Positions 19,093 to 42,925 of a DNA stretch of 51,535 bases are shown here, one piece after another (position 1 is the first letter of the stretch; each line of letters begins with the position of its first letter). A program made the position numbers and the translations under genes. Origin of the DNA: Candidatus Micrarchaeota archaeon (GTDB lineage Archaea; Micrarchaeota; Micrarchaeia; Norongarragalinales; UBA8480). The notes under the pieces are model-generated. The model was not told where the DNA came from, did not search any database, and saw nothing but the letters and a program-made list of their open reading frames with translations. The DNA lies in the NCBI GenBank assembly GCA_964514805.1, contig CAZERP010000001.1, positions 5,967 through 57,501 on the forward strand, in the 5' to 3' direction.

Positions 19093-19764
19093 ATGTATAA
19101 CAAATTAAAAATCACAGCAATAGTACCTGCTTTTAATGAAGAAAAAAACATACGCAAAGTAGTCGAACAAACTGCGCCTTACGTAGACGAAGTCATAGTA
19201 GTAGACGACGGCTCTAAAGATAAAACGGGCGCAATTGCTAAAGAAAGCGGAGCAGTAGTTGCAACACACATTGTTAACATGGGCTTAGGCTTTACATTAG
19301 CAACTGGCGCTGAACTTGCCATAAAACGAGGCGCAGACGTAATAGTAACAATTGACGGAGATGGACAGCACGACCCTACTGAAATTACTCATCTCGTAAA
19401 GACACTAGTTGATGAAAAATTAGATATTGTAATTGGCGCGCGTAAGTTTGATACAAATATGCCTTTTTACAAAAAGCTTGGAAACACAACGATATATACA
19501 ATGCAACATTTACTATTTAACAGCGAAGTTAAAGACACGCAATCTGGATTTAGAGCTTTTAGATCCGAAGTGTGGCCTAAACTTAAATGGACGTCAAATA
19601 GATACGCCGTTTCATCTGAAATAGTGAAAAATATCGGCGTTAATCGTTTGAAGTTTAAAGAAGTAGAAGTTAAAACTATTTACAATGATGATTACAAAGG
19701 AACTAGTATCTTTGATGGCGCAAGAATAGTGACCACGATGATATCTTGGAAACTAAAAGGTTGA
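19093..19764 (+). CDS. GT2 glycosyltransferase (Dol-P-hexose synthase / GtrB / AglD-like)
   Basis: Motifs IVPAFNEEKNI, VVDDGSKDKT and DGDGQHDP; soluble 223 aa. Confidence 0.85.
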   Translation: MYNKLKITAIVPAFNEEKNIRKVVEQTAPYVDEVIVVDDGSKDKTGAIAKESGAVVATHIVNMGLGFTLATGAELAIKRGADVIVTIDGDGQHDPTEITHLVKTLVDEKLDIVIGARKFDTNMPFYKKLGNTTIYTMQHLLFNSEVKDTQSGFRAFRSEVWPKLKWTSNRYAVSSEIVKNIGVNRLKFKEVEVKTIYNDDYKGTSIFDGARIVTTMISWKLKG

Positions 19765-19775
19765 AAAATTATTTT

Positions 19776-20105
19776 ATGGAATTAACATACCCATTACAAA
19801 TTGCAGGCGCAGTATTTTCAGTACTCATGCTGTACTTTACTCATTACACGTACAAAAGAGGCAACTTTGGACTAAAAGATGCCTTGCTTTGGGGCGTAGT
19901 TTGGGCCTGGTTCTTATTCGCATTAGTATTTACGGATGTAATTTCTAAACTATTAATTCCACTTCACATTGTTAGCATATTTGACTTGTTAATTGCAAGC
20001 GCAGTTGGAATCATAATGCTAGTATTGATGCAATTAAACAAAAGAGTTGCTCAAATTGAAAAGAAAATTGAACAAGTAGTGCGCAAAACTGCATTCGAAA
20101 AGTGA
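19776..20105 (+). CDS. DUF2304-like small membrane protein
   Basis: About 109 aa with three TM helices and a C-terminal amphipathic QLNKRVAQIEKKIEQVV helix. This architecture and the GT2 neighbourhood are typical of DUF2304. ATG 19776 is preferred over TTG 19746. Confidence 0.6.
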   Translation: MELTYPLQIAGAVFSVLMLYFTHYTYKRGNFGLKDALLWGVVWAWFLFALVFTDVISKLLIPLHIVSIFDLLIASAVGIIMLVLMQLNKRVAQIEKKIEQVVRKTAFEK

Positions 20106-20771: not shown

Positions 20772-21617
20772 CTAGTCCTTGCTATTTGCAAGTAAATCTA
20801 TTACAGGGCCAAATTCAAAAGAGTCTAGTATCGAGTCTAGTTTTTTGAGTGATTTATCGCCTAGGTTCCAATACGTGATGAAATTAGAAAATGCGCTTTG
20901 CGTGTCGATTCTAGGCGTTTTGTCGTGTAATTCCCAAGGGTGCGCGTACATCACTGCTGGAATTCCTTTTCGGTTTAGTTGTTTTATTCCTTGCTTTATT
21001 ACCGTGTTTGGAAGCGCTCTTAAGTAAAAACCACCCGCGATAGGTACGTTTATCGCGCCTATTTTTGCAGTTGCCATTGGCACTTCGAAAAGTTTACCAT
21101 TAGCGTCGTGTTTTGCAACGTCATTTTTAGACGGCTTATACACATGCAGTGGCGCGTTTGGAACGCCATAAAGGTGTGTTTTGACGGGAAATATTGAAGA
21201 GTCGTATAAGTAGTCGTTGTTTTCTAAAATATCAAGTGCCCATTTGGTTGAATTGTTTATTGAAAAAGATGGCGCTCTAAAACCAAGTGGCTTAATTCCA
21301 ATGGTCTTTTGTATGAGTTTATCTGTTTCTAGTATTTCTTTTTCAAAACTTTTAGGGTTTAATTCATAGAGAATAGTGTGCGAGTAGCCATGACTTGCAA
21401 TTTCATGACCCGCGTCGTAAATTTTTCGTAAAACTTTCGGGCTTTTTTTAACTACATCCCCTAGTATGAAAAAAGTAGCTGTGATGTTTCTAGCATCTAG
21501 CGTATCTAGTATTGATTGTGTTGATTGTTCTACTAGTTCTACTTGCTTTGCTTGGCTTTTTCTAACTAGTTCAGCGTGATACCATTCTTCGATGTCAAAA
21601 CTAATCGCGTTTTTCAT
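20772..21617 (-). CDS. polysaccharide deacetylase, DUF3473-containing subfamily (type found in bacterial PEP-CTERM/EPS loci)
   Basis: Motifs ISFDIEEWYH, ATFFILGDV, GHEIASHGYSH, GFRAPSFSI, YDSSIFP, GGFYLRALP and YAHPWEL. Confidence 0.85.
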   Translation of the reverse strand: MKNAISFDIEEWYHAELVRKSQAKQVELVEQSTQSILDTLDARNITATFFILGDVVKKSPKVLRKIYDAGHEIASHGYSHTILYELNPKSFEKEILETDKLIQKTIGIKPLGFRAPSFSINNSTKWALDILENNDYLYDSSIFPVKTHLYGVPNAPLHVYKPSKNDVAKHDANGKLFEVPMATAKIGAINVPIAGGFYLRALPNTVIKQGIKQLNRKGIPAVMYAHPWELHDKTPRIDTQSAFSNFITYWNLGDKSLKKLDSILDSFEFGPVIDLLANSKD

Positions 21618-21621
21618 AAAA

Positions 21622-22593
21622 TTAACCTATTTGTTTAATTAGCCAAGGGCCAATCGTATTTGCAATTGGAGTGGGTAGTATTTTTGCCCATATTTGTGAG
21701 AGTTTTTTGTATTTGATTTCATCTCTTTGTTCTATTTTTTCTTTAAGGAAGTAATAGTAGTAAGGCATTTGAGTTTCTGCGCCGCCCCAGCCTTTTTTGT
21801 AAGTGAAAACGCCGGAGTTGTACCTGGTTCTTCCGAAGTCGAATTTTTCAAATCCTTGTTTTGAGAATTTAACTATCGCGTTCCAAATTAAGAACTCAAC
21901 TGCTCGTAGAGCAGCGTATTCTTTTAAGTAACAAGAATAAGCGTAATGCACTTCATGGTTATACGGTAAGAATACTGCGCCGGCGACGGGTTTGCCGTTT
22001 AGTTTGGCTAGGTGTATTTGGCAGTTTTCGCCTAGTATTTCTTTCATTTTTTTGAAGAATTTAAGTGATTGAGGTGGGCTGCCTAAGTTTTTCATCGTAG
22101 ACGCGTAGATTTTGTAAAATGCTTCAATATCCGTTTCGTTTTCTACGTTGCATAGTTCAAATCCTGATTTTTGTGATTTTGTAATGTCATTTCTTGTGCG
22201 TTTTTCCATGTTTTTTAAAACAAACGCAGGGTTAGTTATATCTAGTTTGAAAGTAACGTAGTCGTTTCTTTTTTCAAAACCGTTCTTTTCAAGCAAAACG
22301 CCCACGGCGTCTGAAGGGGTTCTTATTTCTACGTAGTTTACTTTTTCTTTTATTGCACATTCAATTATTCTTTTGGCAAGCGCATTTGCATCCGCTTTTA
22401 CGTTTATACTGCCATAGTCTGCAAAAGGTAGGGAAATTAAACGATTTGAAAATATTTTGCTGTTAACCTTTGCAAGTGAAACTGAGTTTGACCCTTCTTT
22501 TAAGTCAAATATTTTATAGTGATAAACTGCTTCAATAAACTCATTCCACTTTTTAGTACCATAGATTGAGTTAGGTTCACTTGCGTTTTTCAT
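21622..22593 (-). CDS. FemAB-family (GNAT-fold) aminoacyl-transferase-like protein
   Basis: 323 aa. Motifs LISLPFADYGS, two GNAT-like halves and YKKGWGGAE near the C-terminus. Its start is 4 nt upstream of the DUF3473 deacetylase. Confidence 0.7.
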   Translation of the reverse strand: MKNASEPNSIYGTKKWNEFIEAVYHYKIFDLKEGSNSVSLAKVNSKIFSNRLISLPFADYGSINVKADANALAKRIIECAIKEKVNYVEIRTPSDAVGVLLEKNGFEKRNDYVTFKLDITNPAFVLKNMEKRTRNDITKSQKSGFELCNVENETDIEAFYKIYASTMKNLGSPPQSLKFFKKMKEILGENCQIHLAKLNGKPVAGAVFLPYNHEVHYAYSCYLKEYAALRAVEFLIWNAIVKFSKQGFEKFDFGRTRYNSGVFTYKKGWGGAETQMPYYYYFLKEKIEQRDEIKYKKLSQIWAKILPTPIANTIGPWLIKQIG

Positions 22594-22793
22594 AATTAAA
22601 AAATAGCCACGCCGAAGATTTAAGTTACGCTCTAGTATTGTACGCTTTGTAAGCTATTTAAACTTACGCGTTTTAGATATTATTTAAACGACAGCCCTGT
22701 TGTTTTTACGAATACAAAAGTCACTCTTTTTTTCTTCAATATTTCACAAAAAAAATAACATTTAAACAAAACCAGGTGCATTGAACTTTATTT

Positions 22794-23585
22794 ATGGTCG
22801 AACTACAAGATTTAGATAAACTTGAACAACAAAGTATATGGGTTTTAAGAGAAGCTAAAGCTCGATTCAAAAACCTCGCCGGACTTTGGAGCATGGGAAA
22901 AGACTCAACAGTAATGCTTGCATTAGCCCGTAAAGCGTTTTTTGGCAAAGTACCATTCCCCGTAATCCACATCGACAATGGAATTGACTTCAAAGAAACA
23001 TACGATTTTAGAAAGAAACTCACCGAAGAATGGAATCTAGACTTAATCGTAGCAAATAGCATCATCAAAGACGATTTAAGTGGAATCAAATGCTGCGGTT
23101 CAAACAAAACCGACGCGCTAAAGAAACTCCTAGACGAACGCGGATTTGATGGACTTGTCGTATCAATACGAAGAGACGAACACGGCATCCGAGCAAAAGA
23201 AAGATCATTCTCACCAAGAGACAAAGACTTCAAATGGAACTACAAAGACCAACCAGCAGAAGTATGGGAATACACAAGCAAATTTGAAGACACCTCACAT
23301 ACAAGAGTTCACCCCTTACTACAATGGAACGAAATTGACATCTGGAGATACATAAAACGCGAAGGAATACCAATCAACCCGCTATACTACGCTAACAGTG
23401 AAGGAATTAGATACAGAAGTCTTGGATGCACTCAATGTACAGTAGGAGTTAAGTCAAAAGCAACTACAATTGATGAAATAATTGAAGAACTCAAAAACAC
23501 TGAAGTTGCAGAACGTTCTGGAAGAATGCAAGACAAAGAAAAAGAAAACGTAATGCAAAGACTAAGAGCACTCGGCTACATGTAA
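22794..23585 (+). CDS. cysD: sulfate adenylyltransferase subunit 2
   Basis: PP-loop WSMGKDSTVML, RRDEHGIRAKERSFSPRD, RYRSLGCTQCT and the C-terminal RLRALGYM tail. Confidence 0.9.
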   Translation: MVELQDLDKLEQQSIWVLREAKARFKNLAGLWSMGKDSTVMLALARKAFFGKVPFPVIHIDNGIDFKETYDFRKKLTEEWNLDLIVANSIIKDDLSGIKCCGSNKTDALKKLLDERGFDGLVVSIRRDEHGIRAKERSFSPRDKDFKWNYKDQPAEVWEYTSKFEDTSHTRVHPLLQWNEIDIWRYIKREGIPINPLYYANSEGIRYRSLGCTQCTVGVKSKATTIDEIIEELKNTEVAERSGRMQDKEKENVMQRLRALGYM

Positions 23586-23601
23586 AAAAAGCATCTGAAT
23601 A

Positions 23602-23622
23602 TTTTTTACCCCTCTTTTTTTT
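23602..23622 (+). terminator. pyrimidine-tract terminator/attenuator candidate after cysD
   Basis: ttttttacccctctttttttt, located in the cysD-cysN gap. Confidence 0.3.
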
Positions 23623-23656
23623 AAAAAATATATTTTAATGTAGTGAAGTTTTTTTT

Positions 23657-24919
23657 ATGGATTCTACTAAAGCAATTAACGTAGCTCTACTTGGGCACAA
23701 AGATCACGGCAAATCAACTTTAATCGGCAGATTACTATACGATACTAAATCAATTACTGAAGATCGTATTAGAGAAGCTCAAATAATGTCTAAGTCATTA
23801 GGAAAAGAATTCGAACTATGCTTTTTGCTTGACAGTTTTGAAGAAGAAAGAGAAGAAGGCTTCACATTAGATACTACAAGAGTACAAGTAGTACACCAAG
23901 GTGTCATTTACGACGTTATTGACGTTCCAGGTCACAAAGAACTTGTAAAAAACATGCTCACCGGCGCGTCACTAGCACACGCTGCGATCCTAATTATTTC
24001 AGCTAAACCAGACGAAGGACTTCAAGATGAAACTAAACTTCATATTTACCTCTCACGAATGCTTGGCATTAACAAACTAGTAATCGCAGTTAACAAAATG
24101 GACTTAATCAACTACGATAAAGCAAAGTTTGACGCGCTAACCTCACAAGTCACCGCGACGTTAGTTAATTTTGGGTTTAACGCCAAACAACTAGAATACG
24201 TGCCAATTTCTGCTAAAGATGGAGATAATGTCACGAAAAAGTCAAACAAAACCTCGTGGTATAGTGGCAAAATGATCATTGAGTACATGGAAGAATTTGC
24301 AAATTATGACTTCGAAAAAGAACTAAGCTCAAAACCCGCCCGTTTAATCGTACAAGACGTATACAACATTGACTCAAACCACGTAATCGTAGGTAAAATT
24401 GAATCCGGAACTTTCAAAGTTAAACAAGAAGTCATAATCGAACCCCTATCACTTAAAGGAAACATTGAAGAATTACACGTTGCAATGGACCGAAAAGACG
24501 CCGCGCACGCAGGCCAAAGTGTTGGCATTGTAATTAAAAGCGACGCGATTAAAAACGTGACCAGAGGTTGCGTTTGCATGCCAGTAAAAGAAGCAACCCC
24601 CACAGTAACTTCAGTTAATGCTAGAATCTTTTGTTTTCCAACCTGCGAACTTGCAACTGGAGAGAAGCTTAACTTTATTTGCGCAGCCCAAGAAGTTACA
24701 GGCAGTGTTGAATTAATAGTAGATAAAATAAACCCAATTACAGACAAAATGCCAATAAAAGTAAACGGTAGCGGATCAGTAAGTAACTCACAAGCAGCAG
24801 ATGTTAAAATTAAACTAGAAAAGCCAATGATACTTGAAAGTTTTAACAAATTGCCTCAAGTTGGTAGATTTGTAATATCTAAAAATGGCCGCATAATTGG
24901 TGTCGGCGTAGTACAATAA
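23657..24919 (+). CDS. cysN: sulfate adenylyltransferase subunit 1 (GTPase), no fused APS kinase
   Basis: G1 GHKDHGKSTLIGRLL (TLIGRLL is CysN-like, not EF-1alpha-like), DVPGH, NKMD and SAKDGDN. 420 aa, ending after the beta-barrel domains. Confidence 0.85.
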   Translation: MDSTKAINVALLGHKDHGKSTLIGRLLYDTKSITEDRIREAQIMSKSLGKEFELCFLLDSFEEEREEGFTLDTTRVQVVHQGVIYDVIDVPGHKELVKNMLTGASLAHAAILIISAKPDEGLQDETKLHIYLSRMLGINKLVIAVNKMDLINYDKAKFDALTSQVTATLVNFGFNAKQLEYVPISAKDGDNVTKKSNKTSWYSGKMIIEYMEEFANYDFEKELSSKPARLIVQDVYNIDSNHVIVGKIESGTFKVKQEVIIEPLSLKGNIEELHVAMDRKDAAHAGQSVGIVIKSDAIKNVTRGCVCMPVKEATPTVTSVNARIFCFPTCELATGEKLNFICAAQEVTGSVELIVDKINPITDKMPIKVNGSGSVSNSQAADVKIKLEKPMILESFNKLPQVGRFVISKNGRIIGVGVVQ

Positions 24920-24940
24920 AAACAAACGAGAAGGTTTAGT

Positions 24941-25696
24941 ATGTTAATAATTGGTCTTGACGGCGCAACTTGGAGTAAAATAAACGCGAATTTAGACGAA
25001 CTACCTAATTTTAAAAAATTAAAAGAAAAATACAAACACGCAGTACTAGAATGTGACGTTAGACCAGTTCACTCTGCGCCTTCTTGGACTACTATATTTA
25101 CTGGAGTTCTTCCAAGCGAGCATGGGGTTTTGGACTTTGCAATTGATGAAAAACAGAGAAGCGAATTAGAAAACCGAAGTGACTTTATTTGGAAAATTGC
25201 AAAAAGCGCAGTTGTAATGCCAGTTGCTATTGCAATACCTCCAATTGCGTACAATTTTTCATTAGATAAATGGGAGTCTTTAGTTTTTTCAATTACTAGC
25301 GAAGAAATGAACGAAAGCACTACCTATACGTTGGAAAGAACTATTGAACTATTACAAAGTAAGAATCGCCCAGAGTTAATTGTTTCAATTTTTTACGAAA
25401 CTGACCGCGCTCAACACGTTTACTGGCACGATGAAGCAAAAATAGTAGCTCACTATGCAAATATAGATAAAGCGCTAGGCAAGTTAATGCCTTTTTTTGA
25501 AAAAGAAAACTTCCTCATATTAAGTGATCATGGTTTTACAAACGCGCAAGAAACCAAAGACAACAAGTGGGACACTGTAAGAAGTAACCAAACTGGCGGC
25601 CATCACCCTAGTGGCATTGTCATCTCAAATTTAGAACCGCCACGCAAAGTAACACAAGTGTACTCTTTTATTAAGAAAGAACTCAAAATGAGTTAA
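24941..25696 (+). CDS. alkaline-phosphatase-superfamily protein (type I phosphodiesterase/NPP, COG1524-like), short paralog
   Basis: GLDGATW, SAPSWTTIFTG (nucleophile region), ETDRAQHVYWH, LSDHGF and GGHH. Confidence 0.75.
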   Translation: MLIIGLDGATWSKINANLDELPNFKKLKEKYKHAVLECDVRPVHSAPSWTTIFTGVLPSEHGVLDFAIDEKQRSELENRSDFIWKIAKSAVVMPVAIAIPPIAYNFSLDKWESLVFSITSEEMNESTTYTLERTIELLQSKNRPELIVSIFYETDRAQHVYWHDEAKIVAHYANIDKALGKLMPFFEKENFLILSDHGFTNAQETKDNKWDTVRSNQTGGHHPSGIVISNLEPPRKVTQVYSFIKKELKMS

Positions 25697-25699
25697 GGT

Positions 25700-26473
25700 A
25701 TGCTTTTTGAAATAAACCTAATATTAGCCGGCTTAGTTGTAGGCATTTGTGTTGGCCTAACTAGCATCGGACTTGGAATGATCCAACTACCCTTACTACT
25801 CGCACTTACTACACTAACTCCTTCCGCTGCTGCAAGCGTTGGCTTAATTCAAGGCAGTTTAATGAAATGGACCGGCATGTGGCGTAGTGCTAAAAAGAAA
25901 AACATAGACTATAGTGTCGTATTACCTTTTGTAGTTCTTGGAATTCCATTTACTGCACTTGGAGTTTACATGCGAAGCTATATTCCTGCAGATTTGCTTA
26001 AAAGTATTATCGGCATCACAATGGTAGCAATGGGAGTAATGCTAGTTTCTACTACGTGGTTTAGTCAAGTAAAAATTCGAGTACAAAAAATAATCGACTT
26101 CTGTCGAACACATAAAAAGTCAATATCCGTAATTGCAGGAATAATCACTGGTTTTATGGTTGGCTTAACTAGCATTGGAAGCGGCTCATTTATCATAATC
26201 ATACTATCCACCGTATTACTACTACCACCTACGATTGCAGTTGGGACTAATTTAATGATCGGCGGAATCCTAGTCGCTACTGGTGGAATCGTAAGCGCAA
26301 TTACTAGCAACATTAATTATGACATAGTAATTAGCTTGCTAATAGGTTCAATTCCCGGCGTTTTAATTGGAGGCAAAATAGCACCAAAAGTACCCGTTAA
26401 ACCAATGCGCGCTGTAATCGCAATTTTAGTCATAATAAGCGGCCTGGATATGGCTTTTAAAATAATAAAATAA
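25700..26473 (+). CDS. TauE/SafE (TSUP) family anion permease
   Basis: 257 aa with 8 predicted TM helices and a 4+4 internal repeat, each half carrying VGLTSIG(L/S)G. Confidence 0.85.
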   Translation: MLFEINLILAGLVVGICVGLTSIGLGMIQLPLLLALTTLTPSAAASVGLIQGSLMKWTGMWRSAKKKNIDYSVVLPFVVLGIPFTALGVYMRSYIPADLLKSIIGITMVAMGVMLVSTTWFSQVKIRVQKIIDFCRTHKKSISVIAGIITGFMVGLTSIGSGSFIIIILSTVLLLPPTIAVGTNLMIGGILVATGGIVSAITSNINYDIVISLLIGSIPGVLIGGKIAPKVPVKPMRAVIAILVIISGLDMAFKIIK

Positions 26474-26548
26474 ACTAAAACACTTACAAATAAAGAAAAA
26501 ATTTCGCTTTTGAAAAATAAATATTAACGAGGTAGAATTTCAACACTA

Positions 26549-26749
26549 ATGTCTAAATCTATTACACTAAAGGACGCGACTTTTACTCGCGCGGAAAAAG
26601 AAGCTAAAGCTAACGGTTTTAGTGACGTTTCAGAATACGTTTCAAGCGTATTAGAAGAAATTTTTAGCGCAATAGATGAAGAAAAAAGCGCAGATGTTGA
26701 TGACGATGACGTAAAGAAACGTTTACGCGCGCTAGGTTACAAAGATTAA
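26549..26749 (+). CDS. small RHH(CopG)-like protein with acidic linker and CysD-like RLRALGY C-terminal tail
   Basis: 66 aa. SITLKDATFTRAEKEAKANGFSDVSEYVSSVLEEIF has a strand-helix-helix pattern, followed by DEEKSADVDDDD and then KKRLRALGYKD. GAGGT lies upstream. Confidence 0.5.
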   Translation: MSKSITLKDATFTRAEKEAKANGFSDVSEYVSSVLEEIFSAIDEEKSADVDDDDVKKRLRALGYKD

Positions 26750-26762
26750 GAGCTAGATAAAC

Positions 26763-28397
26763 ATGACGAAACGCGTACTAGTAATTGGAATTGACTCGGG
26801 TACTTTTGACTTGATAAAACCATGGGCAAAAGCAGGACACTTACCTAACTTAGGTAAATTAATTGAAAGCGGAGTACACGGCAGTTTTGTTGACTCATGG
26901 CTTCCAATAACCGCGCCAAGATGGACTACTATTTCTACTGGCAAAAATCCCGGCAAGCATGGAATTTTTGACTTTAGTAACATGCTAACAAATTACAAAA
27001 CTAAACCCGTTTCAAGCAAAGATATAGACGCAAAACCACTATACTCCCTTATTTCAGATGCAGGTAAAAAAGTCTTAGTACTAAACTACCCCATCACATA
27101 TCCATGTACTTGCGTAGATGGACATATGGTTGCCGGAATGCCAGCACCGATGTTAAATGAAAAAGCAGTTTATCCCCTAGAAATTCTTGAAGAAATTAAA
27201 GCTAGAAATTACAAAATTCTACCCGAAGAAGTTTATGACGGTACAAATGAAGAGTCAATACTCAAAGAATTACATGAAGTAATTGACAACCAATGTACAC
27301 TAGCTAAAGAATTCGTAACTACAAAGGAATGGGAATTTTGCTTTAACGTTTTCTTTAACACAGACATTGCAGGTCACTGGTTTTGGAAGCACATGGATGA
27401 AACCCATCCTGAGCACAACCAAAGAGCCGCTAAATACAAAGACGCGATTTTAGATGTTTACAAAAAAGCCGACAAAAGTGTAGGCGAGTTAATACAAGCC
27501 GCAGGCAAAGACACTACAGTATTCATAGTTTCAGATCACGGCATGGGCCCATTATACAAGGACATTTTTATCAACAACTGGCTATTGCAAAAAGGGTTTT
27601 TGAAATTAAAGAAAAACGCGATCAGCCGATTAAAATACGCAATGCACAAAGGCGGTTTTACTCTTGAAAACATGTATTCTATTGTCAAAAAGACAGGCCT
27701 TGCAAAACTTACCGCTAAAAATTCAGACGAAGCAGAAAACGCCAGGCAGTTTATTTTGAATAACTTTTTCATTTCATTTGATGACGTAGACTGGAGCAAA
27801 ACAGTAGCATTTTCATCTACTAACTATGGCCCGATTTTTATTAACCTTAAAGGCCGACAAGCGCAAGGAATTGTAAACCCGGGCGAAGAGTATGAAAAGG
27901 TTTGCCGCGAAGTTGCTAATTCATTGCTTGAAATTAAAGACGAAAAAGGAGAACAAGTTGTCGAAGTAGTAAAAGTTAAAAGCGAAATTGTAAGTGGAGA
28001 TCACCTAAACCAAGCACCAGACATAGTTTTTAGAATTAAAGGCATGAAATACACGACTAATCGTTATTTCGAATTTGGTTCAAACAAACTCTTCGGAAGC
28101 CCACACAGAGGAATGTCTGGAGATCATAGAGATAATGGAATTTTCATAGCAAATGGCCCGGATATTAAAAAGTCAAGCGAACAAGTTACTTTTAGGATGA
28201 TTGACCTTGCCCCTACTATATTGCACTTACTTGAATTGCCAATTCCAAACGACATGGACGGCGCAGCAGTCACCAGCATATTTGATGAAAATAGCCCTGT
28301 TTTTAAGAGAAAAATTGAAATTAACTCCAAAGTGCCAACTGTTAAAAAGTACGGCCGCGAAATGATTAAAAGAGTAATTTCAAAGATCAAACACTAA
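26763..28397 (+). CDS. alkaline-phosphatase-superfamily protein (type I phosphodiesterase/NPP, COG1524-like), long paralog
   Basis: GIDSGTF, TAPRWTTISTG, NTDIAGHWFWKH, VSDHGMGP and SGDHRDNG. The N-terminus is paralogous to 24941-25696. Confidence 0.8.
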   Translation: MTKRVLVIGIDSGTFDLIKPWAKAGHLPNLGKLIESGVHGSFVDSWLPITAPRWTTISTGKNPGKHGIFDFSNMLTNYKTKPVSSKDIDAKPLYSLISDAGKKVLVLNYPITYPCTCVDGHMVAGMPAPMLNEKAVYPLEILEEIKARNYKILPEEVYDGTNEESILKELHEVIDNQCTLAKEFVTTKEWEFCFNVFFNTDIAGHWFWKHMDETHPEHNQRAAKYKDAILDVYKKADKSVGELIQAAGKDTTVFIVSDHGMGPLYKDIFINNWLLQKGFLKLKKNAISRLKYAMHKGGFTLENMYSIVKKTGLAKLTAKNSDEAENARQFILNNFFISFDDVDWSKTVAFSSTNYGPIFINLKGRQAQGIVNPGEEYEKVCREVANSLLEIKDEKGEQVVEVVKVKSEIVSGDHLNQAPDIVFRIKGMKYTTNRYFEFGSNKLFGSPHRGMSGDHRDNGIFIANGPDIKKSSEQVTFRMIDLAPTILHLLELPIPNDMDGAAVTSIFDENSPVFKRKIEINSKVPTVKKYGREMIKRVISKIKH

Positions 28398-28403
28398 AAC
28401 GAC

Positions 28404-29591
28404 ATGAAGATTTGCATTATTGGCCTAGAAATATCTCCACCTTGGACTGAAGGTGTGAAGAATAACGCGTTTAACTTAGCTAAACATTTGAAAAAACAAG
28501 GAGTAGACGTTTTTGTTTTAACAATGTCACGAGTACTACCCGAAGAATCTGTAATTGAAGGGGTTAAGTTTTACGCAGTCAAAACTGCAGATTTTGATAA
28601 CAAAAAAGAACTATACCAATCCCTACCTAATTTACCTAAGTTCATTAAATTTAGCCGAAAAGTCATTGAAAAAGAAAAACCAGATGTTATTCATGGAAAT
28701 CACTACGTGTTATCCATGGGCGTAATTGACAAACTTGTAAATTCTACTGGCGCTAAGTGCGTAGAGACTATTTATGGCGATTTTTATGACCTTAGTTCAA
28801 TGACTAGCGTGAATGGTTTTACTTTTGTAAGCGAACAACTGCCTCACTTACTGATAAATAATCCACTAGTAACCTACTTGGCGTCAACGCAATATGACGC
28901 AGTTTTAACGCCAAATAATTACTTGAAAAATAAACTCTTAAACGCAGCTAAGACTATTGAAGTTATTCCAAACGGAGTAGATACTAAAAAATTTAGGCCA
29001 TTAAAAAGTTACGATTCTTTTTACAAACAGCATAAAATTAACCCAAAAGAACCTAAAGTTATTTACTTAGGTCATTTAACTTACGCTAAAGGAGTTAAAT
29101 TCTTAATAGAATCATTTGCCAAATTTACAAAAACATATCCTAAAGCGCAGTTAATTATCGCGTGGAGCGGCGCGGGTACGCAAAATGAAGAAGTTTTCAA
29201 TTTAATTAAAAGCAAAGGAATTGAAAAAAACATAATAAAAATTGGCGTAGTGGATGTAAACGAAGCTATGGGTTGTGCGGACGTTTTTGTGTTACCTCGA
29301 ACTTATGCGTTTGGCACAGTTATAATTCCTAACACCATACTAGAAGCGCTAGCGTGTTCAACTCCCGTAATAACAACTAATTTAGGCGGGATTAATGAAA
29401 TAATTAACGGAGAAAATGGATACACCGTAGCGCCAAGAGACTCAAATGCTCTGACGCGGGCAATGCTTGAACTGTTCTCGAATAAAAATAAAGATTCATT
29501 TAGAGCAAATGCAAGAAAAACAGCGGAAAAATACAGCTGGGTAGAAATTGCTAAGAAAACAAAACGTTTTTACGGAGAGTTATTAAAATGA
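28404..29591 (+). CDS. GT4 glycosyltransferase
   Basis: GT-B fold with the EX7E-type region PNTILEALACSTPVITTNLGGINEIINGENGY. Confidence 0.85.
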   Translation: MKICIIGLEISPPWTEGVKNNAFNLAKHLKKQGVDVFVLTMSRVLPEESVIEGVKFYAVKTADFDNKKELYQSLPNLPKFIKFSRKVIEKEKPDVIHGNHYVLSMGVIDKLVNSTGAKCVETIYGDFYDLSSMTSVNGFTFVSEQLPHLLINNPLVTYLASTQYDAVLTPNNYLKNKLLNAAKTIEVIPNGVDTKKFRPLKSYDSFYKQHKINPKEPKVIYLGHLTYAKGVKFLIESFAKFTKTYPKAQLIIAWSGAGTQNEEVFNLIKSKGIEKNIIKIGVVDVNEAMGCADVFVLPRTYAFGTVIIPNTILEALACSTPVITTNLGGINEIINGENGYTVAPRDSNALTRAMLELFSNKNKDSFRANARKTAEKYSWVEIAKKTKRFYGELLK

Positions 29592-36024: not shown

Positions 36025-37260
36025 ATGAGTGTTTTAATTACTGACGCTTCTAAAAGAGCGGCGCTTGCAGCTATTAGGTCTATTGGTAGCAAAGGAGTTG
36101 AAGTTACCGCTGCTAGTGATGAGACTAATTGCGCAGGTTTCTTATCTAAGTACGCGACTCGTAAAGTAATTACTACTAATCCGCAAGTAGATTCTGAGAC
36201 GTTTTTGGATGAAATTGAAAAAGAACTACGAGTAAAAAAGCAGGATTGTTTGCTTCCAATTCATGATTTTAGTTTAATTCCTGTACTTAAGGAAAAGAAG
36301 CGATTTGACGCGCTAACTAGCGTTCCTTTTTGTGATTTTAAGACTTTTGAAAAGACTTGGGATAAAGAAGAAACTCTAAAAGTAGCTAAACTAGCTAACG
36401 TTCCAATTCCAAAAACTATGACTGTAACTTCTATGAAAGAAGTTGAAAAACTCTCAGACGTGGATTTTGAATACCCTGTCGTAGTAAAACCAGCTAGTCA
36501 AACTCAATTGGAAAATAAAGGCGCGAAGACTAGTTATGTTTCTAGTAAGAATTATTGTCACTCAATTAAAGACGTACAACTAATAGCAAGTCAAATAGTT
36601 TCTGACTCAGGTAAAGCGTTAATTCAAGAATACATCCAGGGAAACGGAGTTGGAGTCGCTGCGCTTTTCAATAAAGGTAAACCAAGAGCGCTCTTTTCCT
36701 ACAAGCGAGTTCGCGAGTATCCAATTACTGGCGGGCCAAGTACATTACGTGAAAGTACAGATGATTACAAGTTAAAAGAATACGCGAGTAATTTGCTTGA
36801 AAAACTCAAATGGCATGGCCTTGCGATGGTAGAATTCAAACAAACTCCAACAGGTAAGTATTACTTAATGGAAATTAATGGCAGGTTTTGGGGCAGTGTA
36901 GCTCTTGCAATTAATTCCGGAGTTGATTTTCCATATTTATTATACGAAATGGGAACTAAAGGAGATGTAAACGAAGTTACTAGCTACAAAGTAGGCGTAT
37001 TACAAAAATGGCTCCTACCCGGAGATGTTTTGCATTTCGGCGCTAGATTCAAAAAAGAAAAACTCGCATCTAAGCCAGGCGTCGCATTCGATTTTGTAAA
37101 GTCGATTTTTGAACCAGCAAGTGAAGATTACTTATCTTTAGATGACCCCTTGCCTGCATTTGGCGCTTTGAAAACGGGCGCGGGCTACTTTGCAAACTTT
37201 TTAGCAGGCAAGCGTACGATGTCTGGTGAGTACAAAAAAGAAAAGAAGGTTAAGCATTAA
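36025..37260 (+). CDS. ATP-grasp carboxylate-amine ligase-like protein
   Basis: Motifs YPVVVKPA, LIQEYIQG and MVEFKQTPTGKYYLMEINGRFWGS. Confidence 0.8.
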   Translation: MSVLITDASKRAALAAIRSIGSKGVEVTAASDETNCAGFLSKYATRKVITTNPQVDSETFLDEIEKELRVKKQDCLLPIHDFSLIPVLKEKKRFDALTSVPFCDFKTFEKTWDKEETLKVAKLANVPIPKTMTVTSMKEVEKLSDVDFEYPVVVKPASQTQLENKGAKTSYVSSKNYCHSIKDVQLIASQIVSDSGKALIQEYIQGNGVGVAALFNKGKPRALFSYKRVREYPITGGPSTLRESTDDYKLKEYASNLLEKLKWHGLAMVEFKQTPTGKYYLMEINGRFWGSVALAINSGVDFPYLLYEMGTKGDVNEVTSYKVGVLQKWLLPGDVLHFGARFKKEKLASKPGVAFDFVKSIFEPASEDYLSLDDPLPAFGALKTGAGYFANFLAGKRTMSGEYKKEKKVKH

Positions 37261-37923
37261 ATGGATTTTAAGATTGATTTTCACGTACATACAAGTAAAT
37301 CTTTTGATAGCATAGCAGATGTAAAGTCAGTTGTTCGAATAGCTAAAAGTAAAGGACTTGACGCGATTTGTGTAACCGATCATGATGTTTACACTGAATT
37401 TGAAAATCTTGACTTGACTGTTTTTCGCGGTTGTGAAATTACTACAGATGCAGGAGATCTGCTTGGAGTTTTTATTAAAAGTCCAGTTAAAAGTGGCAAA
37501 TGGCAAGATGTTATTCAGCAAGTTCATAAGCAAGGCGGGCTAGTAATACTACCGCACCCGTATAATCATCATACGCTAAGTGCGGAACTTATTAGACGCG
37601 TTGACGCGATTGAAGTGTATAATTCAAGAGTAAAACCGGAATTAAACAAAAAAGCATTCGAATTAGCTAAAAAATACGACAAACCCACAGTAGCAAGTAG
37701 CGATGCTCATTTTGCAAGCGACGTAGGCAACTCATACACAGTTGTTGACTCTAAGTCGCTTAAAGAAAATGACGTTAAAAACGCGCTCTTAAAAAATAAA
37801 ACCAAAACACACTACCGCGCGTCCAATCGTAACAAAATTCACATTAATCGCGCAATTAAACTAGTTAAATTAAGACAATTCAATAAAATTTTGCCGTTTA
37901 TTAAAAAAAAGATTTTAAACTAA
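37261..37923 (+). CDS. PHP-domain metal-dependent phosphoesterase (TrpH/YciV-like)
   Basis: Motifs DFHVHTSKS, AICVTDHD, LPHPY and SSDAH. The ATG directly abuts the ATP-grasp stop. Confidence 0.8.
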   Translation: MDFKIDFHVHTSKSFDSIADVKSVVRIAKSKGLDAICVTDHDVYTEFENLDLTVFRGCEITTDAGDLLGVFIKSPVKSGKWQDVIQQVHKQGGLVILPHPYNHHTLSAELIRRVDAIEVYNSRVKPELNKKAFELAKKYDKPTVASSDAHFASDVGNSYTVVDSKSLKENDVKNALLKNKTKTHYRASNRNKIHINRAIKLVKLRQFNKILPFIKKKILN

Positions 37924-40105: not shown

Positions 40106-42925
40106 TTAAGGCTTTTGGTATTCAAAAATCTTAACTTCACCAGTTGGAGATGTGTAAACTAGTTTGTAGCCCGGTAAGTTGTTAAAGAAGTATAACCTAA
40201 CGTAAGCTGAGTCTAGAATTGCACTCGATTTGTTAACTAGTCTAAAGTCTGGGTTGGCGTTGATTAGAGATTGCTGTGATACTGGTAGCAAGTAAGACAT
40301 ATTTGCGTCTACGACAGTCTTGTTTTGTGATTGTAGTGATATTATTGAAAAGTCTCTTGCTAAGTCTGATCTCAAACCAGAATTGTCTATTGGTATGATT
40401 TGATTTTGGTTTAGACAGTATGAAAGTCCAAAGCTGCTTTGCGCAAGGGTTAGTCCTTGTGCGAATGGGCATTGTTGGTTAACCAAGTTGATTGTTTCAA
40501 AGTAGTGGAATAGTTCGTATTCGCTTGAACCTGCTCCTTTTTGCCAGTCTTGGATACTTGGTTGGTTTGGACACGCAGGTAGCTCTATTGGGATGTAGTC
40601 TACTGGTCCTTTTTGACATGTTCCAGATAAGTATACTAACGCGCCCCATTTTTGAATGAGTTCGAAGTCTACGAGTACGTGAGTTGCTTGGTGGTAGTCC
40701 ATAGCGTATTTTAAGTCGTTTGCGTCATCTACGAATCCGTGTGCTACTTGGTGATCGAAGTATGCTCTACTGTTTGTTGGGTCGAGTACGGTTTTGGTTT
40801 CTCCAAGGAACATAGTCCAGTGGCCGTAGTCCCACCAGCTCATTACTCTACAAGAGTGTCCGAATTTAGCTTGGCAGTTGCTTTCGGTTTCTGGGTTTAA
40901 GTAACTGGTGTTATTCTTTAGCCATTGCATTGCAAGTAGCCAGTCTTTTGAAATGGTTGATTGCTTTAAGCCATTAGCCGTAGTTAGCGCGCCGTTGAAT
41001 GCTCCGGTTGCGCCGGTTGCTTGCACTATTCCTGCAAGGCCTCCGAGTAGTAATGTGAATGCAATTACAAATGTTGTAACATGAGTTGAGTTTGTAGTGT
41101 GTTTGAATAGTTTGACTTCGCTGCCTATTTTTTCTAATACTCTTGCAAGTTCAGCAAGTAGTACAGGTAATGCAAATGCGAGTACGATTGCCAAGTGTAG
41201 TATGAATTTGATTTTGTTAAGTCCAATGAATGCTACTGGAAATATTATTAGTACACTTAGGAGTTGATAGTGGACTGAGTCGTTGTCTTTGAGGTTTAAA
41301 GCCGCGACTAGTAGTATTGAAATGATTGATATTATGAACGGCGCGAATACTGGGCTTTGTGTGAAGCTTTCCATTCCAACGCTAAGTGATGCACTGAGAA
41401 GTGAGGCGACTTGGGATGCAAATAAGCTCAACAGTATACATAGTATTGCGTATCCGGCTGCGTTTTTGTATTCTTTTCTTGAAGTAAAAGCATGGACTGC
41501 CCATAATGCAAATGCTAGTGCAAGGCCGTTGAATAGAACGTATGGGTTTAGTACTCCGAATGCACTTGCGAATACTCCTTCAAAAGTTGGGTTTTCTTCT
41601 GCGATTGTGTTACTTAGTGGCGCTCCGTTTTTAGCGATTTTTGCATAGTTAGAAAATAAGCCAAATGGACTTGTGCCGCCAGGTAGTATTGGTAGTAAAC
41701 TAAATACAAGGAAGATTAGTACTAGTACGCCTAGGAATTTGGTTTTGCCCATTGCTTTGACTTGAGGTAATTTGTTTAACGCAAATAGTATTACGCTTGG
41801 TATTAGTGATAGTGCAAATAGTATTGAGACTATTGGGAATCCAATAGTAGGTTCATACGCGCCTAGTATTGCACCTGCGAGTAAGCCGCTGAGTGCAAAT
41901 ATTGCGTTAATTATGATTTTCTTTTCAGTTAGTTTTTCGGTTAAGAAGTCAATTATTGTTGATAGTAGGAAGTATCCTGCGAATACTGCAAATGGCCAGA
42001 TGTATTGTTGTCCTCCAAGTAATGCGGCGGCAGTTACTACTCCTCCGATGAGTGCGAATCTGTAGCTTTGTCTTTTAGTTGCAAGTACGTAAAGTGCAAA
42101 CATTGCAAATGCACTATAGACTCCCCATGGTTGTAATTCAGATACTCCTGATGCGAATTTTTGGATGATTTGTGGCGTGAATGCCATGAATACTGCGCCT
42201 ATTACTCCTGCAGTTTCATCGTATTGTTCTTTTAGAAGCCAGTATGCTACGATTGATAGCATTGCGCCTACGACTGGGGGGTAGATGTTTGAAATTAGGA
42301 TTAAAGTTCCTTTGTCGAAGGCAGTTCCGCTGAATAGTTGGTGTAGTAGCGTCCATGATCCGGTTAAGTATTGAACTAAAGGATGTGTCCTAAATATTTC
42401 TCCAACGGGAAAATAGCTGATATCTAGTGTGTGAGGTACTTGTCCGAATCTAATTAAGAATTCGGTTAACATGTTGTAGTAGTAAGGGTCAAATTCGAAG
42501 AAGCTTGTTGATAGAGGAATTATTTTTATTAGAAAACTTGCAATTGCAATAAGTGCGACTACGATAATTGGCGCGTTTTTTGGAAGGGTTTTTGGGTTAA
42601 ATGTTTTAATTTCTTTGATTTTGTTTTTAACCGCTGCCATTGCATCGCCTTGAATTGCATACGCAGCAATTCCGAGTATAGTTAGAAGCACGACGTTTGC
42701 TAATATCATAGTCGTGTCAAATTTAAGTCCTATTAAGAAGTACTCTAAAAATAGCGCTAGTGGTACTGCTATTAGTGACATTGCAAATGATAGTAGTAGT
42801 TTGTCGGAAAAGTTTGCGCCAGTTTTACGCAAAGCGGCAAATGTTAAACTTGCAGCTGGAATAAACATTAAGATAAAAGACGCTAAAAGCGCAAATGCGT
42901 TAATCATAAGAAAAAAACTATACAA
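40106..42925 (-). CDS. aglB: oligosaccharyltransferase AglB (STT3 family)
   Basis: About 13 TM helices followed by a large soluble domain. It has the WWDYGHW catalytic motif and an EFDPYYY first-loop acidic motif. ORF-track start 42925 is a TTG; the first ATG is at 42907 (MINAF). Confidence 0.9.
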   Translation of the reverse strand: MYSFFLMINAFALLASFILMFIPAASLTFAALRKTGANFSDKLLLSFAMSLIAVPLALFLEYFLIGLKFDTTMILANVVLLTILGIAAYAIQGDAMAAVKNKIKEIKTFNPKTLPKNAPIIVVALIAIASFLIKIIPLSTSFFEFDPYYYNMLTEFLIRFGQVPHTLDISYFPVGEIFRTHPLVQYLTGSWTLLHQLFSGTAFDKGTLILISNIYPPVVGAMLSIVAYWLLKEQYDETAGVIGAVFMAFTPQIIQKFASGVSELQPWGVYSAFAMFALYVLATKRQSYRFALIGGVVTAAALLGGQQYIWPFAVFAGYFLLSTIIDFLTEKLTEKKIIINAIFALSGLLAGAILGAYEPTIGFPIVSILFALSLIPSVILFALNKLPQVKAMGKTKFLGVLVLIFLVFSLLPILPGGTSPFGLFSNYAKIAKNGAPLSNTIAEENPTFEGVFASAFGVLNPYVLFNGLALAFALWAVHAFTSRKEYKNAAGYAILCILLSLFASQVASLLSASLSVGMESFTQSPVFAPFIISIISILLVAALNLKDNDSVHYQLLSVLIIFPVAFIGLNKIKFILHLAIVLAFALPVLLAELARVLEKIGSEVKLFKHTTNSTHVTTFVIAFTLLLGGLAGIVQATGATGAFNGALTTANGLKQSTISKDWLLAMQWLKNNTSYLNPETESNCQAKFGHSCRVMSWWDYGHWTMFLGETKTVLDPTNSRAYFDHQVAHGFVDDANDLKYAMDYHQATHVLVDFELIQKWGALVYLSGTCQKGPVDYIPIELPACPNQPSIQDWQKGAGSSEYELFHYFETINLVNQQCPFAQGLTLAQSSFGLSYCLNQNQIIPIDNSGLRSDLARDFSIISLQSQNKTVVDANMSYLLPVSQQSLINANPDFRLVNKSSAILDSAYVRLYFFNNLPGYKLVYTSPTGEVKIFEYQKP

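Follow-up and report, generated by a model that had tools for sequence, protein, structure and literature searches.

A candidate glycan sulfation module linking sulfate activation genes to alkaline phosphatase superfamily enzymes in a Micrarchaeota archaeon

Introduction

What is the fate of activated sulfate in an archaeal gene cluster where sulfate activation genes stand next to alkaline phosphatase (AP) superfamily genes and are surrounded by glycosylation genes? This question is raised by a stretch of 51,535 nt from a Candidatus Micrarchaeota archaeon (contig CAZERP010000001.1, assembly GCA_964514805.1), which is called the window here and represents a part of the genome only. Six genes in it encode the ATP sulfurylase small subunit CysD, a CysN-type GTPase, an AP-superfamily enzyme of 251 aa (AP-251), a TauE/SafE permease, a small protein of 66 aa and a second AP-superfamily enzyme of 544 aa (AP-544). 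An earlier note, made on this DNA from its letters alone, had suggested that CysD and the GTPase form adenosine 5'-phosphosulfate (APS) and that the AP proteins use it to sulfate a glycan in a non-classical manner.

The textbook view of O-sulfation combines 3'-phosphoadenosine 5'-phosphosulfate (PAPS) with a classical sulfotransferase. The finding of sulfatase-like sulfotransferases in 2025 leaves open which donor they use and how far their chemistry extends. The linkage described below offers a concrete donor pathway, leading from CysD and its GTPase through APS to an AP-fold enzyme, in organisms apparently lacking APS kinase, and the recurrence of this pairing in many uncultured archaea and bacteria points to an unrecognised sulfation of cell-surface sugars. 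On balance, we regard the locus as a probable module for the sulfation of a glycan or lipid-linked sugar within an N-glycosylation island anchored by AglB.

Conserved linkage of sulfate activation and AP-superfamily genes

The gene neighbourhood was surveyed from the side of the AP genes with one genome per species, which provided 16 true members of the AP-251 family (loci L005-L020). CysD was encoded in all 16 loci, and the GTPase as well in the 15 that hold a complete CysD gene. AP-251 directly adjoins CysD or the GTPase in 15 of the 16; in the remaining locus (L006) CysD lies about 5 kb away and the contig ends inside it. Two gene orders were observed, namely CysD-CysN-AP251 in archaea, with or without a preceding small protein gene, and AP251-CysD-CysN in Patescibacteria. 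A tblastn probe and a motif scan detected no APS kinase in these 16 loci, nor was a classical sulfotransferase encountered in them. The loci contain several AP paralogues each (2-5), and more distant genes of the COG3379 type, to which AP-544 belongs, adjoin CysDN in three Syntrophorhabdus genomes, a deltaproteobacterium, Victivallales and a metagenome-assembled genome (MAG) of Nanoarchaeota.

From the other side, a profile of this CysD subtype was searched against metagenome contigs and 80 loci were obtained at 51-78% identity, 24 of them with at least 3 kb of sequence past the GTPase. An AP-superfamily gene is present in 20 of these 24: 14 are of the PF01663 type, three are PF00884 sulfatase-like (L078, L080, L081) and three encode a mini-AP (L092, L099, L100). 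Of the 80 loci, no more than two (L140, L141) have CysN fused to the kinase CysC; both are without an AP gene, and L141 alone belongs to the 24. In contrast, a Skermanella plasmid combines a short CysD and CysNC with a classical sulfotransferase and has no AP gene. The pattern is that the kinase goes with a classical sulfotransferase, and the absence of a kinase goes with an AP-fold enzyme. As the linkage is seen from the AP side and from the CysD side, the arrangement is beyond chance; the functional link between cysDN and the AP genes, for which the earlier note had asked a neighbourhood comparison, thus proved strongly conserved.

The window itself agrees with this pattern. Among its open reading frames (ORFs) of at least 110 aa, a Pfam sweep found no APS kinase, Sulfotransfer_* family, APS/PAPS reductase or sulfite reductase, so that the pair of the classical PAPS pathway (PF01583 with Sulfotransfer_1/2/3) was not encountered in the 51.5 kb. 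The tblastn probe and motif scan for APS kinase also gave no match in the window, and the same probe readily detects kinases in other loci. The absence of kinase, sulfotransferase and APS/PAPS reductase noticed on first reading has therefore held in the Pfam sweep and, for the kinase, by tblastn as well.

Neighbouring genes were counted in 25 clustered sequences, comprising the window and 24 loci. The small tail protein recurs in 14 of them, a cluster of GT2 glycosyltransferases (c4) in 13 and a Wzx/MATE-type flippase in 11. A DUF2304 gene stands beside the GT2 gene in the Syntrophorhabdus and deltaproteobacterial loci. The GT2-DUF2304 pair is recurrent near the CysDN-AP module across phyla, which may hint at what DUF2304 does.

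COG3379 genes abound on haloarchaeal megaplasmids and chromosomes. Most of them bear the C-terminal tail described below, and they occur in glycan clusters together with FemAB-like acetyltransferases, polysaccharide deacetylases, glycosyltransferases and flippases. In the haloarchaeal loci L072-L074 a deacetylase (DUF3473) and a FemAB-like Acetyltransf_6 protein flank the COG3379 genes, as they do in the window at 20772-22593; this suggests that deacetylase, FemAB and COG3379 proteins form a wider conserved set for glycan modification. Haloarchaeal plasmids were also considered as carriers of this CysD subtype and were rejected, since none was present among the 30 best-listed of 361 records; all 30 were bacterial, and several were of the short type with CysNC.

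Some individual arrangements were recorded during the surveys. The mini-AP of 230 aa is encoded between CysD and the GTPase (L092:2761-3453; L099:3299-3991; L100:8552-9244); it is very divergent, begins with MIILA[LM]DALD and matches PF01663 weakly. A 75-aa ORF of the GIY-YIG nuclease type occupies the same position in L081 (10846-11073), with PF00884 sulfatase-like and GT10 fucosyltransferase-like genes downstream. An Armatimonadetes MAG (L025:8199-11305) encodes Sat, APS kinase and a 446-aa PF01663 protein consecutively on the same strand. In Nanoarchaeota, APS kinase, a 624-aa PF01663 protein, an arylsulfotransferase (ASST)-like protein and CysD are found within 6 kb (L037:2288-8450), the ASST-like protein lying between the AP protein and CysD; this locus mixes parts of PAPS-dependent and PAPS-independent sulfation.

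Family, catalytic residues and fold of AP-251 and AP-544

Both AP proteins belong to PF01663, with 97.4 bits (1.6e-27) for AP-251 and 132.1 bits (4.7e-38) for AP-544 against a cut-off of 23. The motifs are GLDGATW, SAPSWTTIFTG, HGVLDF and SDHG in AP-251, and GIDSGTF, TAPRWTTISTG, HGIFDF and SDHG in AP-544. They had been introduced as two paralogues that retain the SDHG metal site; the homology and the site were confirmed, but the proteins are only 24% identical (E 2e-12) and a stretch of about 190 aa in AP-544 is missing from AP-251. Judged from this alignment, they are distant members of one family and not recent duplicates.

The AP-251 family (about 250 aa; 54 matches) is distributed in Micrarchaeota, Bilamarchaeum and Patescibacteria, and its alignment shows D7, S45, D155, H159, D196, H197, H221 and H222 to be invariant. 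Among the AP-544 homologues the invariant residues are D11, D201, H205, D258, H259 and H455, with T50 conserved in at least 90%. The full set of nucleophile and two-metal ligands, which the earlier note had proposed to check, is kept in both proteins.

The AlphaFold2 (AF2) model of AP-251 has a mean predicted local distance difference test score (pLDDT) of 95.6, and Foldseek matched it to ENPP1/3 and to the Xanthomonas (Xac) nucleotide pyrophosphatase/phosphodiesterase (NPP) with a TM-score of about 0.7 and 12-16% identity. The fold of AP-544 was taken from the model of a tail-bearing homologue (P0007, 50% identical) and not from the window protein; with a pLDDT of 90.4, its nearest solved folds are ENPP6, NPP3 and Xac NPP, and the Foldseek probability to the ENPPs and Xac NPP is 1.00, as for AP-251. 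Foldseek returned no close homologue with a solved structure for either protein. On these models, both AP proteins are assigned to the NPP branch and not to the S1 sulfatases. For PF00884, the S1 sulfatase family, AP-544 reaches 19.6 bits, short of the cut-off of 25, and AP-251 has no match; the Sulfatase and SGSH_C matches of AP-544 are weak and sub-threshold. The formylglycine motif C/S-x-P-x-R is absent from both, the corresponding positions reading T-A-P-R-W in AP-544 and S-A-P-S-W in AP-251.

A sequence scan of the five module proteins other than TauE detected no signal peptide or transmembrane-like segment, and both AP enzymes look cytoplasmic. The last 40 residues of AP-544 include 11 K/R. 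Many homologues of AP-544 are fused to DUF2304, the partner of polyprenyl-phosphate GT2 enzymes, which ties this type of enzyme to a lipid-linked sugar step. COG3379 as a whole is a large uncharacterised family with more than 4,000 matches, abundant on haloarchaeal megaplasmids, and the present linkage allows a function to be proposed for it. AP-544 is a candidate glycan or lipid-linked-sugar sulfotransferase, and AP-251 a candidate for either an APS-consuming sulfotransferase or an obligate partner of CysDN.

CysD and its GTPase partner

The identification of CysD from its PP-loop was upheld: the SMGKDS motif is present, PF01507 matches with 127.9 bits (5.6e-37), and the protein scores 301 bits against the NCBIfam NF003587 cut-off of 195, placing it inside that family. 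It falls below the narrower TIGR02039 and NF009214 cut-offs. The alignment with Pseudomonas CysD (1ZUN_A, 193 bits) is full-length and includes the C-terminal tail, while an insertion of about 32 aa is missing. CysD identity is 77-83% across the Micrarchaeota loci, and the best matches of CysD, AP-251 and AP-544 are all in Micrarchaeota MAGs.

The 420-aa GTPase has intact G motifs together with GTP_EFTU, D2 and C-terminal domains, but lacks an APS-kinase domain. In NCBIfam it scores 337 bits as EF-1alpha and 236 bits as CysN, under both curated cut-offs (336 for CysN, TIGR02034), and it thus stays outside the CysN family as curated; among solved structures it is closer to archaeal EF-1alpha (1JNY, 264 bits) than to CysN (1ZUN_B, 165 bits). 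The earlier designation as CysN was therefore right in the G motifs and in the lack of a fused kinase domain, but not in the family. The protein is best called an EF-1alpha-like, CysN-type GTPase, with a CysN-like role by its gene context: it accompanies CysD in the window and in all 15 AP-251 loci with a complete CysD, and it follows CysD in every one of the 47 metagenome loci that are long enough to show it.

In one Micrarchaeota MAG (L008:1975-3993) CysD is split in frame by an intein of about 385 aa (Intein_splicing with a LAGLIDADG homing endonuclease), and the split ORF still terminates in MQRLRALGYM.

The C-terminal tail and the 66-aa protein

A short motif, [KR]L[KRA]xLGY followed by 0-3 residues, ends several proteins of the system. 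In the window it terminates CysD (MQRLRALGYM) and the 66-aa protein (KKRLRALGYKD). Every CysD of this subtype carries the tail, and on canonical CysD it is degenerate (..KKRQGYF in 1ZUN_A). It is found at the C-terminus of 106 of 120 AP-544-family homologues and of 114 of 120 haloarchaeal COG3379 proteins, and also on PF00884 proteins (L021, L075) and on small proteins of 62-130 aa; its Tyr is invariant, and a part for this residue as a sulfo-carrier was considered but set aside as speculation. AP-251 and the GTPase do not have it. Where the AP-544-type enzyme is tailless, as in the window and elsewhere in Micrarchaeota and Patescibacteria, the gene for a small tail protein adjoins the gene of that enzyme or cysD. 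To judge from the alignments, the sharing of one tail by CysD, most COG3379 enzymes, some APS kinases and the 66-aa protein is a new observation. The APS kinase ORFs with a ..RL+xLGY tail are L048:6944-7855 and L038:4683-6254.

We read the tail as a candidate docking peptide coupling sulfate activation and transfer. Docking within the same molecule was rejected, as the tail helix is undocked in the P0007 monomer model, which makes binding to a partner in trans probable. The 66-aa protein may accordingly be regarded as a candidate adaptor that gives in trans the tail which most COG3379 enzymes carry in cis. It has no Pfam or NCBIfam match, and a profile search against the PDB gave nothing significant. 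Its description as a tailed ribbon-helix-helix (RHH) protein was partly borne out. The sequence pattern is compatible with RHH, but the RHH_1 matches, obtained for 3 of 18 relatives, are all sub-threshold (best E 0.0015); the tail is real, but its identity with the CysD C-terminus and its fusion to most COG3379 enzymes had been missed. A short tail that links the sulfate activation enzymes with the candidate transferases suggests the formation of a complex.

Proposed mechanism and alternative explanations

In the probable sulfation module, the short-type CysD and the EF-1alpha-like GTPase without kinase domain would convert ATP and sulfate to APS, with GTP hydrolysis as the driving force, and the cytoplasmic NPP-fold AP-251 and AP-544 would use up the activated sulfate. 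Ser45 of AP-251 or Thr50 of AP-544 at the two-metal site may accept the sulfuryl group with release of AMP, and hand it on to a hydroxyl group on a sugar or glycan that is linked to polyprenyl phosphate. The acceptor sugar would be built by the neighbouring GT2/DUF2304 and GT4 enzymes, and sulfation would precede flipping and transfer by AglB. AP-251 could be an obligate and probably complex-forming partner of CysDN that, in place of APS kinase, draws the unfavourable sulfurylase equilibrium forward, and the AP-544-type paralogues may provide acceptor specificity. The RLRxLGY tail would be the docking peptide that unites activation and transfer, provided in trans by the 66-aa protein, and TauE could be a lineage-specific permease for the sulfate anion. 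What we observe is the gene content, family membership, conserved catalytic residues, fold, linkage and distribution of the tail; from these we infer that a sulfuryl group is transferred, that APS and not PAPS donates it, what accepts it and that the tail serves in docking. It is possible, though doubtful at present, that this represents a PAPS-independent O-sulfation in which a kinase-less CysD/GTPase pair hands APS to AP sulfotransferases of the NPP fold (elsewhere of the sulfatase fold), assembled via the tail, and that glycans are sulfated mainly in this way in DPANN archaea, the candidate phyla radiation (CPR), haloarchaea and several uncultured bacterial phyla.

Several observations weigh against the proposed sulfation module. 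NPP-fold enzymes usually attack phosphorus, and such an attack on APS would give AMP and sulfate, which is hydrolysis. An AP gene is missing from four of the 24 CysD loci, and the nearest homologues of AP-544 (56-58% identity) are encoded away from cysDN with only the small protein kept as a neighbour. The tail of the P0007 monomer model is a helix of low confidence (pLDDT 49-69). The AP family lies directly downstream of APS kinase in six Armatimonadota loci, and it adjoins CysC in Gemmatimonadaceae (Gemmatimonadota) and in a Nanoarchaeota locus. The position of the family beside Sat and CysC indicates that it is tied to activated sulfate in general and that PAPS may be the donor in some lineages; because the same family adjoins APS kinase elsewhere, the use of APS over PAPS is not established. 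A cysC gene could also lie elsewhere in this genome, of which 51.5 kb was viewed. Lastly, a literature search returned nothing on COG3379, on APS-dependent O-sulfotransferases or on AP-family proteins in sulfated-polysaccharide clusters.

The likeliest of the alternatives, though still unlikely, is that the AP enzymes are housekeeping hydrolases. They would act as phosphatase or pyrophosphatase on 3'-phosphoadenosine 5'-phosphate (PAP) or APS in the manner of CysQ, or as a pyrophosphatase pulling ATP sulfurylase, and the real sulfotransferase would be encoded elsewhere. The fold is of the NPP type and NPPs cleave nucleotide pyrophosphate bonds, the Sat-CysC-AP order of Armatimonadota resembles sat-cysC-cysQ operons, and AP-251 is single-copy and strictly attached to CysN. 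However, loci without a kinase form no PAP and hydrolysis of APS would be futile, 2-5 AP paralogues per locus are more than such a role would lead one to expect, and neither the DUF2304 fusions nor the haloarchaeal copies in glycan clusters without activation genes fit it well. The window holds no other candidate sulfotransferase, and the sulfotransferases Agl30 and Agl31 prove that AP-fold proteins can be transferases (PMC11980604). An improbable alternative retains group transfer and exchanges the group: the AP enzymes would transfer phosphoglycerol, phosphoethanolamine, phosphocholine or sugar-phosphate in the manner of EptA, LtaS and OpgB, and the proximity to cysDN would reflect nothing but a shared glycan island. 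Transferases that use a Thr nucleophile are familiar from the AP superfamily, the haloarchaeal and the closest AP-544 homologues have no cysDN nearby, and the island has a CDP-alcohol phosphatidyltransferase and nucleotidyltransferases. This leaves unexplained, however, the linkage of AP-251 in 16 loci and that of 20 of 24 loci on the CysD side across phyla and gene orders, the adjacency to Sat/CysC in other phyla, and the tail common to CysD and APS kinases.

Sulfur scavenging, where the AP proteins would be sulfatases freeing sulfate from organosulfates, TauE would move the anion and CysDN would begin assimilation, appears slightly more improbable still. Papers on DPANN archaea class genes for sulfate adenylyltransferase and arylsulfatase as sulfur metabolism (PMC8091004, PMC12153355), the sub-threshold Sulfatase/SGSH_C matches of AP-544 point weakly in this direction, and in one CysD locus (L093) an ABC transporter with a PBP-like binding protein adjoins CysD. 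Against it, APS/PAPS reductase, sulfite reductase and cysteine synthase were not found in the window or the loci, the AP enzymes have neither signal peptides nor the formylglycine motif, their folds are of the NPP and not the S1 sulfatase type, and the genes lie within a glycan assembly island. It is very improbable that the CysD/EF-1alpha-like pair is no ATP sulfurylase at all and handles another anion or substrate (selenate, for example, or PP-loop adenylation of a different acceptor) whose product is processed by the AP enzymes. The relation of the GTPase to EF-1alpha with its score under the CysN cut-off, the scores of CysD under the TIGR02039 and NF009214 equivalog cut-offs and its missing insertion of about 32 aa would suit this idea, whereas CysD passes NF003587 and aligns over its full length with 1ZUN_A including the tail, the same AP family is tied to bona fide Sat and APS kinase elsewhere, and a permease for sulfur anions is encoded in the operon. 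All four explanations fit the comparative data less well than a sulfation module does.

Comparison with known sulfation systems

EptA/MCR-1, LtaS and OpgB are AP-superfamily enzymes that carry out ping-pong group transfer to a glycan or lipid via a covalent Thr intermediate. They offer a mechanistic analogue for the sulfation module, but they are membrane-anchored and periplasmic and transfer phospho-groups from lipid donors; the likeness is drawn at the superfamily level. The window proteins have the same fold as ENPP1/3/6 and the Xanthomonas NPP, with a common two-metal site and Thr/Ser nucleophile, and NPPs bind AMP-containing substrates. On the other hand, the identity is 12-16%, the window proteins are predicted to be cytoplasmic whereas NPPs are secreted, AP-251 is a minimal core of 251 aa and AP-544 has an insertion of about 190 aa. 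The gene context in the window points to sulfuryl chemistry, not to phosphodiester hydrolysis.

The closest functional precedent is provided by Halobacterium salinarum Agl30 (VNG1056C) and Agl31 (VNG1057C). Deletion of their genes and expression in Hfx. volcanii identified both as N-glycan sulfotransferases (Zaretsky et al. 2025, PMC11980604). They are sulfatase-like members of the AP superfamily whose genes belong to the aglB cluster, their substrate is the glycan bound to dolichyl phosphate (Dol-P), and the paper makes no mention of APS, PAPS or CysD (PMC11980604). The idea of a non-classical sulfotransferase with an AP fold, put forward for this locus from the sequence alone, thus has a genetic precedent in archaeal N-glycans (PMC11980604). 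Both cases have AP-superfamily genes in an aglB-anchored cluster, and the classical sulfotransferase fold is not involved in either. Agl30 and Agl31 are of the PF00884 type, with 5G2U and 6HHM as the closest structures, whereas the window proteins are PF01663 NPP-type and lie under the Sulfatase cut-off. The window moreover has the link to kinase-less CysD/CysN and the common tail, and elsewhere PF00884 proteins adjoin CysDN and carry the tail. In comparison with the 2025 precedent, the different AP branch, the explicit link to a donor pathway and the common candidate docking motif are new.

Agl7 of Haloferax volcanii (HVO_2046) is needed for the sulfation of a Dol-P-hexose (PMC3892788). The likeness lies in the sulfation of a lipid-linked first sugar in a glycosylation cluster with GT2 enzymes and a flippase; the module described here has GT2/DUF2304 genes, and a Wzx-like flippase in 11 loci. 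No entry named Agl7 was present among the top 120 matches of a search seeded with a COG3379 protein of Hfx. mediterranei, and neither of two Haloferax loci examined is the agl5-agl15 cluster. Canonical bacterial sulfation of the NodPQ/NodH type likewise employs a PP-loop CysD with a C-terminal GY[FM] tail and a GTPase partner, and decorates glycans rather than serving assimilation. An APS kinase, in many cases as a CysN fusion, and a classical sulfotransferase belong to the canonical system, of which the Skermanella plasmid and L141 are examples; the window has neither enzyme, its GTPase is nearer to EF-1alpha and AP-fold enzymes are present instead.

DPANN surveys list sulfate adenylyltransferase and arylsulfatase as sulfur metabolism and do not connect them to each other (PMC8091004, PMC12153355). 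If the proposed module is real, the sat/cysDN and 'arylsulfatase' genes of DPANN and CPR genomes would stand for decoration of cell-surface glycans and not for sulfur catabolism. Haloarchaea with tail-bearing COG3379 genes in glycan clusters are genetically tractable, and the idea is therefore directly testable.

Organization of the locus and its surroundings

The six module genes and the GT4 gene lie on the same strand with intergenic gaps of 71, 21, 3, 75, 13 and 6 nt (Table 1), and GT4 is likely to be on the same transcript as AP-544. The gene order, strand and gaps first described were reproduced from the ORF calls, and every motif then quoted was found in the translations (WSMGKDS in CysD; GHKDHGKSTLIGRLL, DVPGH and NKMD in the GTPase; the AP motifs). 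Pfam profiles matched PAPS_reduct, GTP_EFTU, PF01663 twice, TauE and GT4, in agreement with the family assignments of the note.

Table 1. Features of the module and its neighbourhood, in window coordinates.
Feature	Position	Strand	Description
GT2 (polyprenyl-phosphate hexosyltransferase-like) and overlapping DUF2304 membrane protein	19093..20105	+	PF00535, PF10066
Polysaccharide deacetylase (DUF3473) and FemAB-like acetyltransferase (Acetyltransf_6)	20772..22593	-	divergent from cysD
Divergent intergenic region upstream of cysD	22594..22793	.	200 nt, AT-rich; three TTTAAAC-type TATA-like boxes; putative promoter
CysD	22794..23585	+	263 aa; ATP sulfurylase small subunit, short type; PF01507
EF-1alpha-like GTPase, CysN-type	23657..24919	+	420 aa; GTP_EFTU, D2 and C-terminal domains
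AP-251, minimal NPP-fold AP-superfamily enzyme	24941..25696	+	251 aa; PF01663
TauE/SafE (TSUP) anion permease	25700..26473	+	257 aa; PF01925
Small tail protein	26549..26749	+	66 aa; possibly RHH-like N-terminal domain, acidic linker, C-terminal tail KKRLRALGYKD
AP-544, COG3379-type NPP-fold enzyme	26763..28397	+	544 aa; PF01663; tailless, basic C-terminus
GT4 glycosyltransferase	28404..29591	+	Glycos_transf_1 and Glyco_transf_4
AglB/STT3 oligosaccharyltransferase	40106..42925	-	PF02516 and PF22627; island anchor

TauE was confirmed as a TauE/SafE permease by PF01925 (135.2 bits, 3.7e-39; cut-off 32.6), by the duplicated VGLTSIG at residues 18 and 154 and by multiple hydrophobic segments. Its inclusion in the module by the earlier note could not be maintained: a homologue occurs only in the near-identical contigs L070/L071 and in none of about 150 other related loci, and TauE was rejected as a conserved module part. 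It may be lineage-specific cargo, possibly for sulfate uptake.

The Pfam sweep placed the module in an archaeal N-glycosylation island that is anchored by AglB and extends over about 7.4-44 kb of the window, and the glycosylation setting described earlier was thereby substantiated, with glycosyltransferase, flippase, aminotransferase and epimerase genes around the module. The island further comprises a GT4-family phosphosugar transferase, flippase-like genes, several GT4, GT2 and GT-C enzymes, DegT aminotransferases, epimerases, methyltransferases, an Asn-synthase-type amidotransferase, and the CDP-alcohol phosphatidyltransferase and nucleotidyltransferases mentioned above. The GT2 (19093-19764) and DUF2304 (19746-20105) genes overlap by 19 nt.

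The intergenic region before cysD is presumed from its sequence to hold the promoter of the module. TATTTAAAC is present twice in it, and CATTTAAAC lies about 30 nt before the cysD ATG. Three copies of (T/C)ATTTAAAC were noticed at 22656-22770, two of them 25 nt apart, and these could be operator sites or else TATA boxes serving the two divergently transcribed units. The glycosylation island also encodes, at 36025-37923, an ATP-grasp protein and a PHP-domain phosphoesterase.

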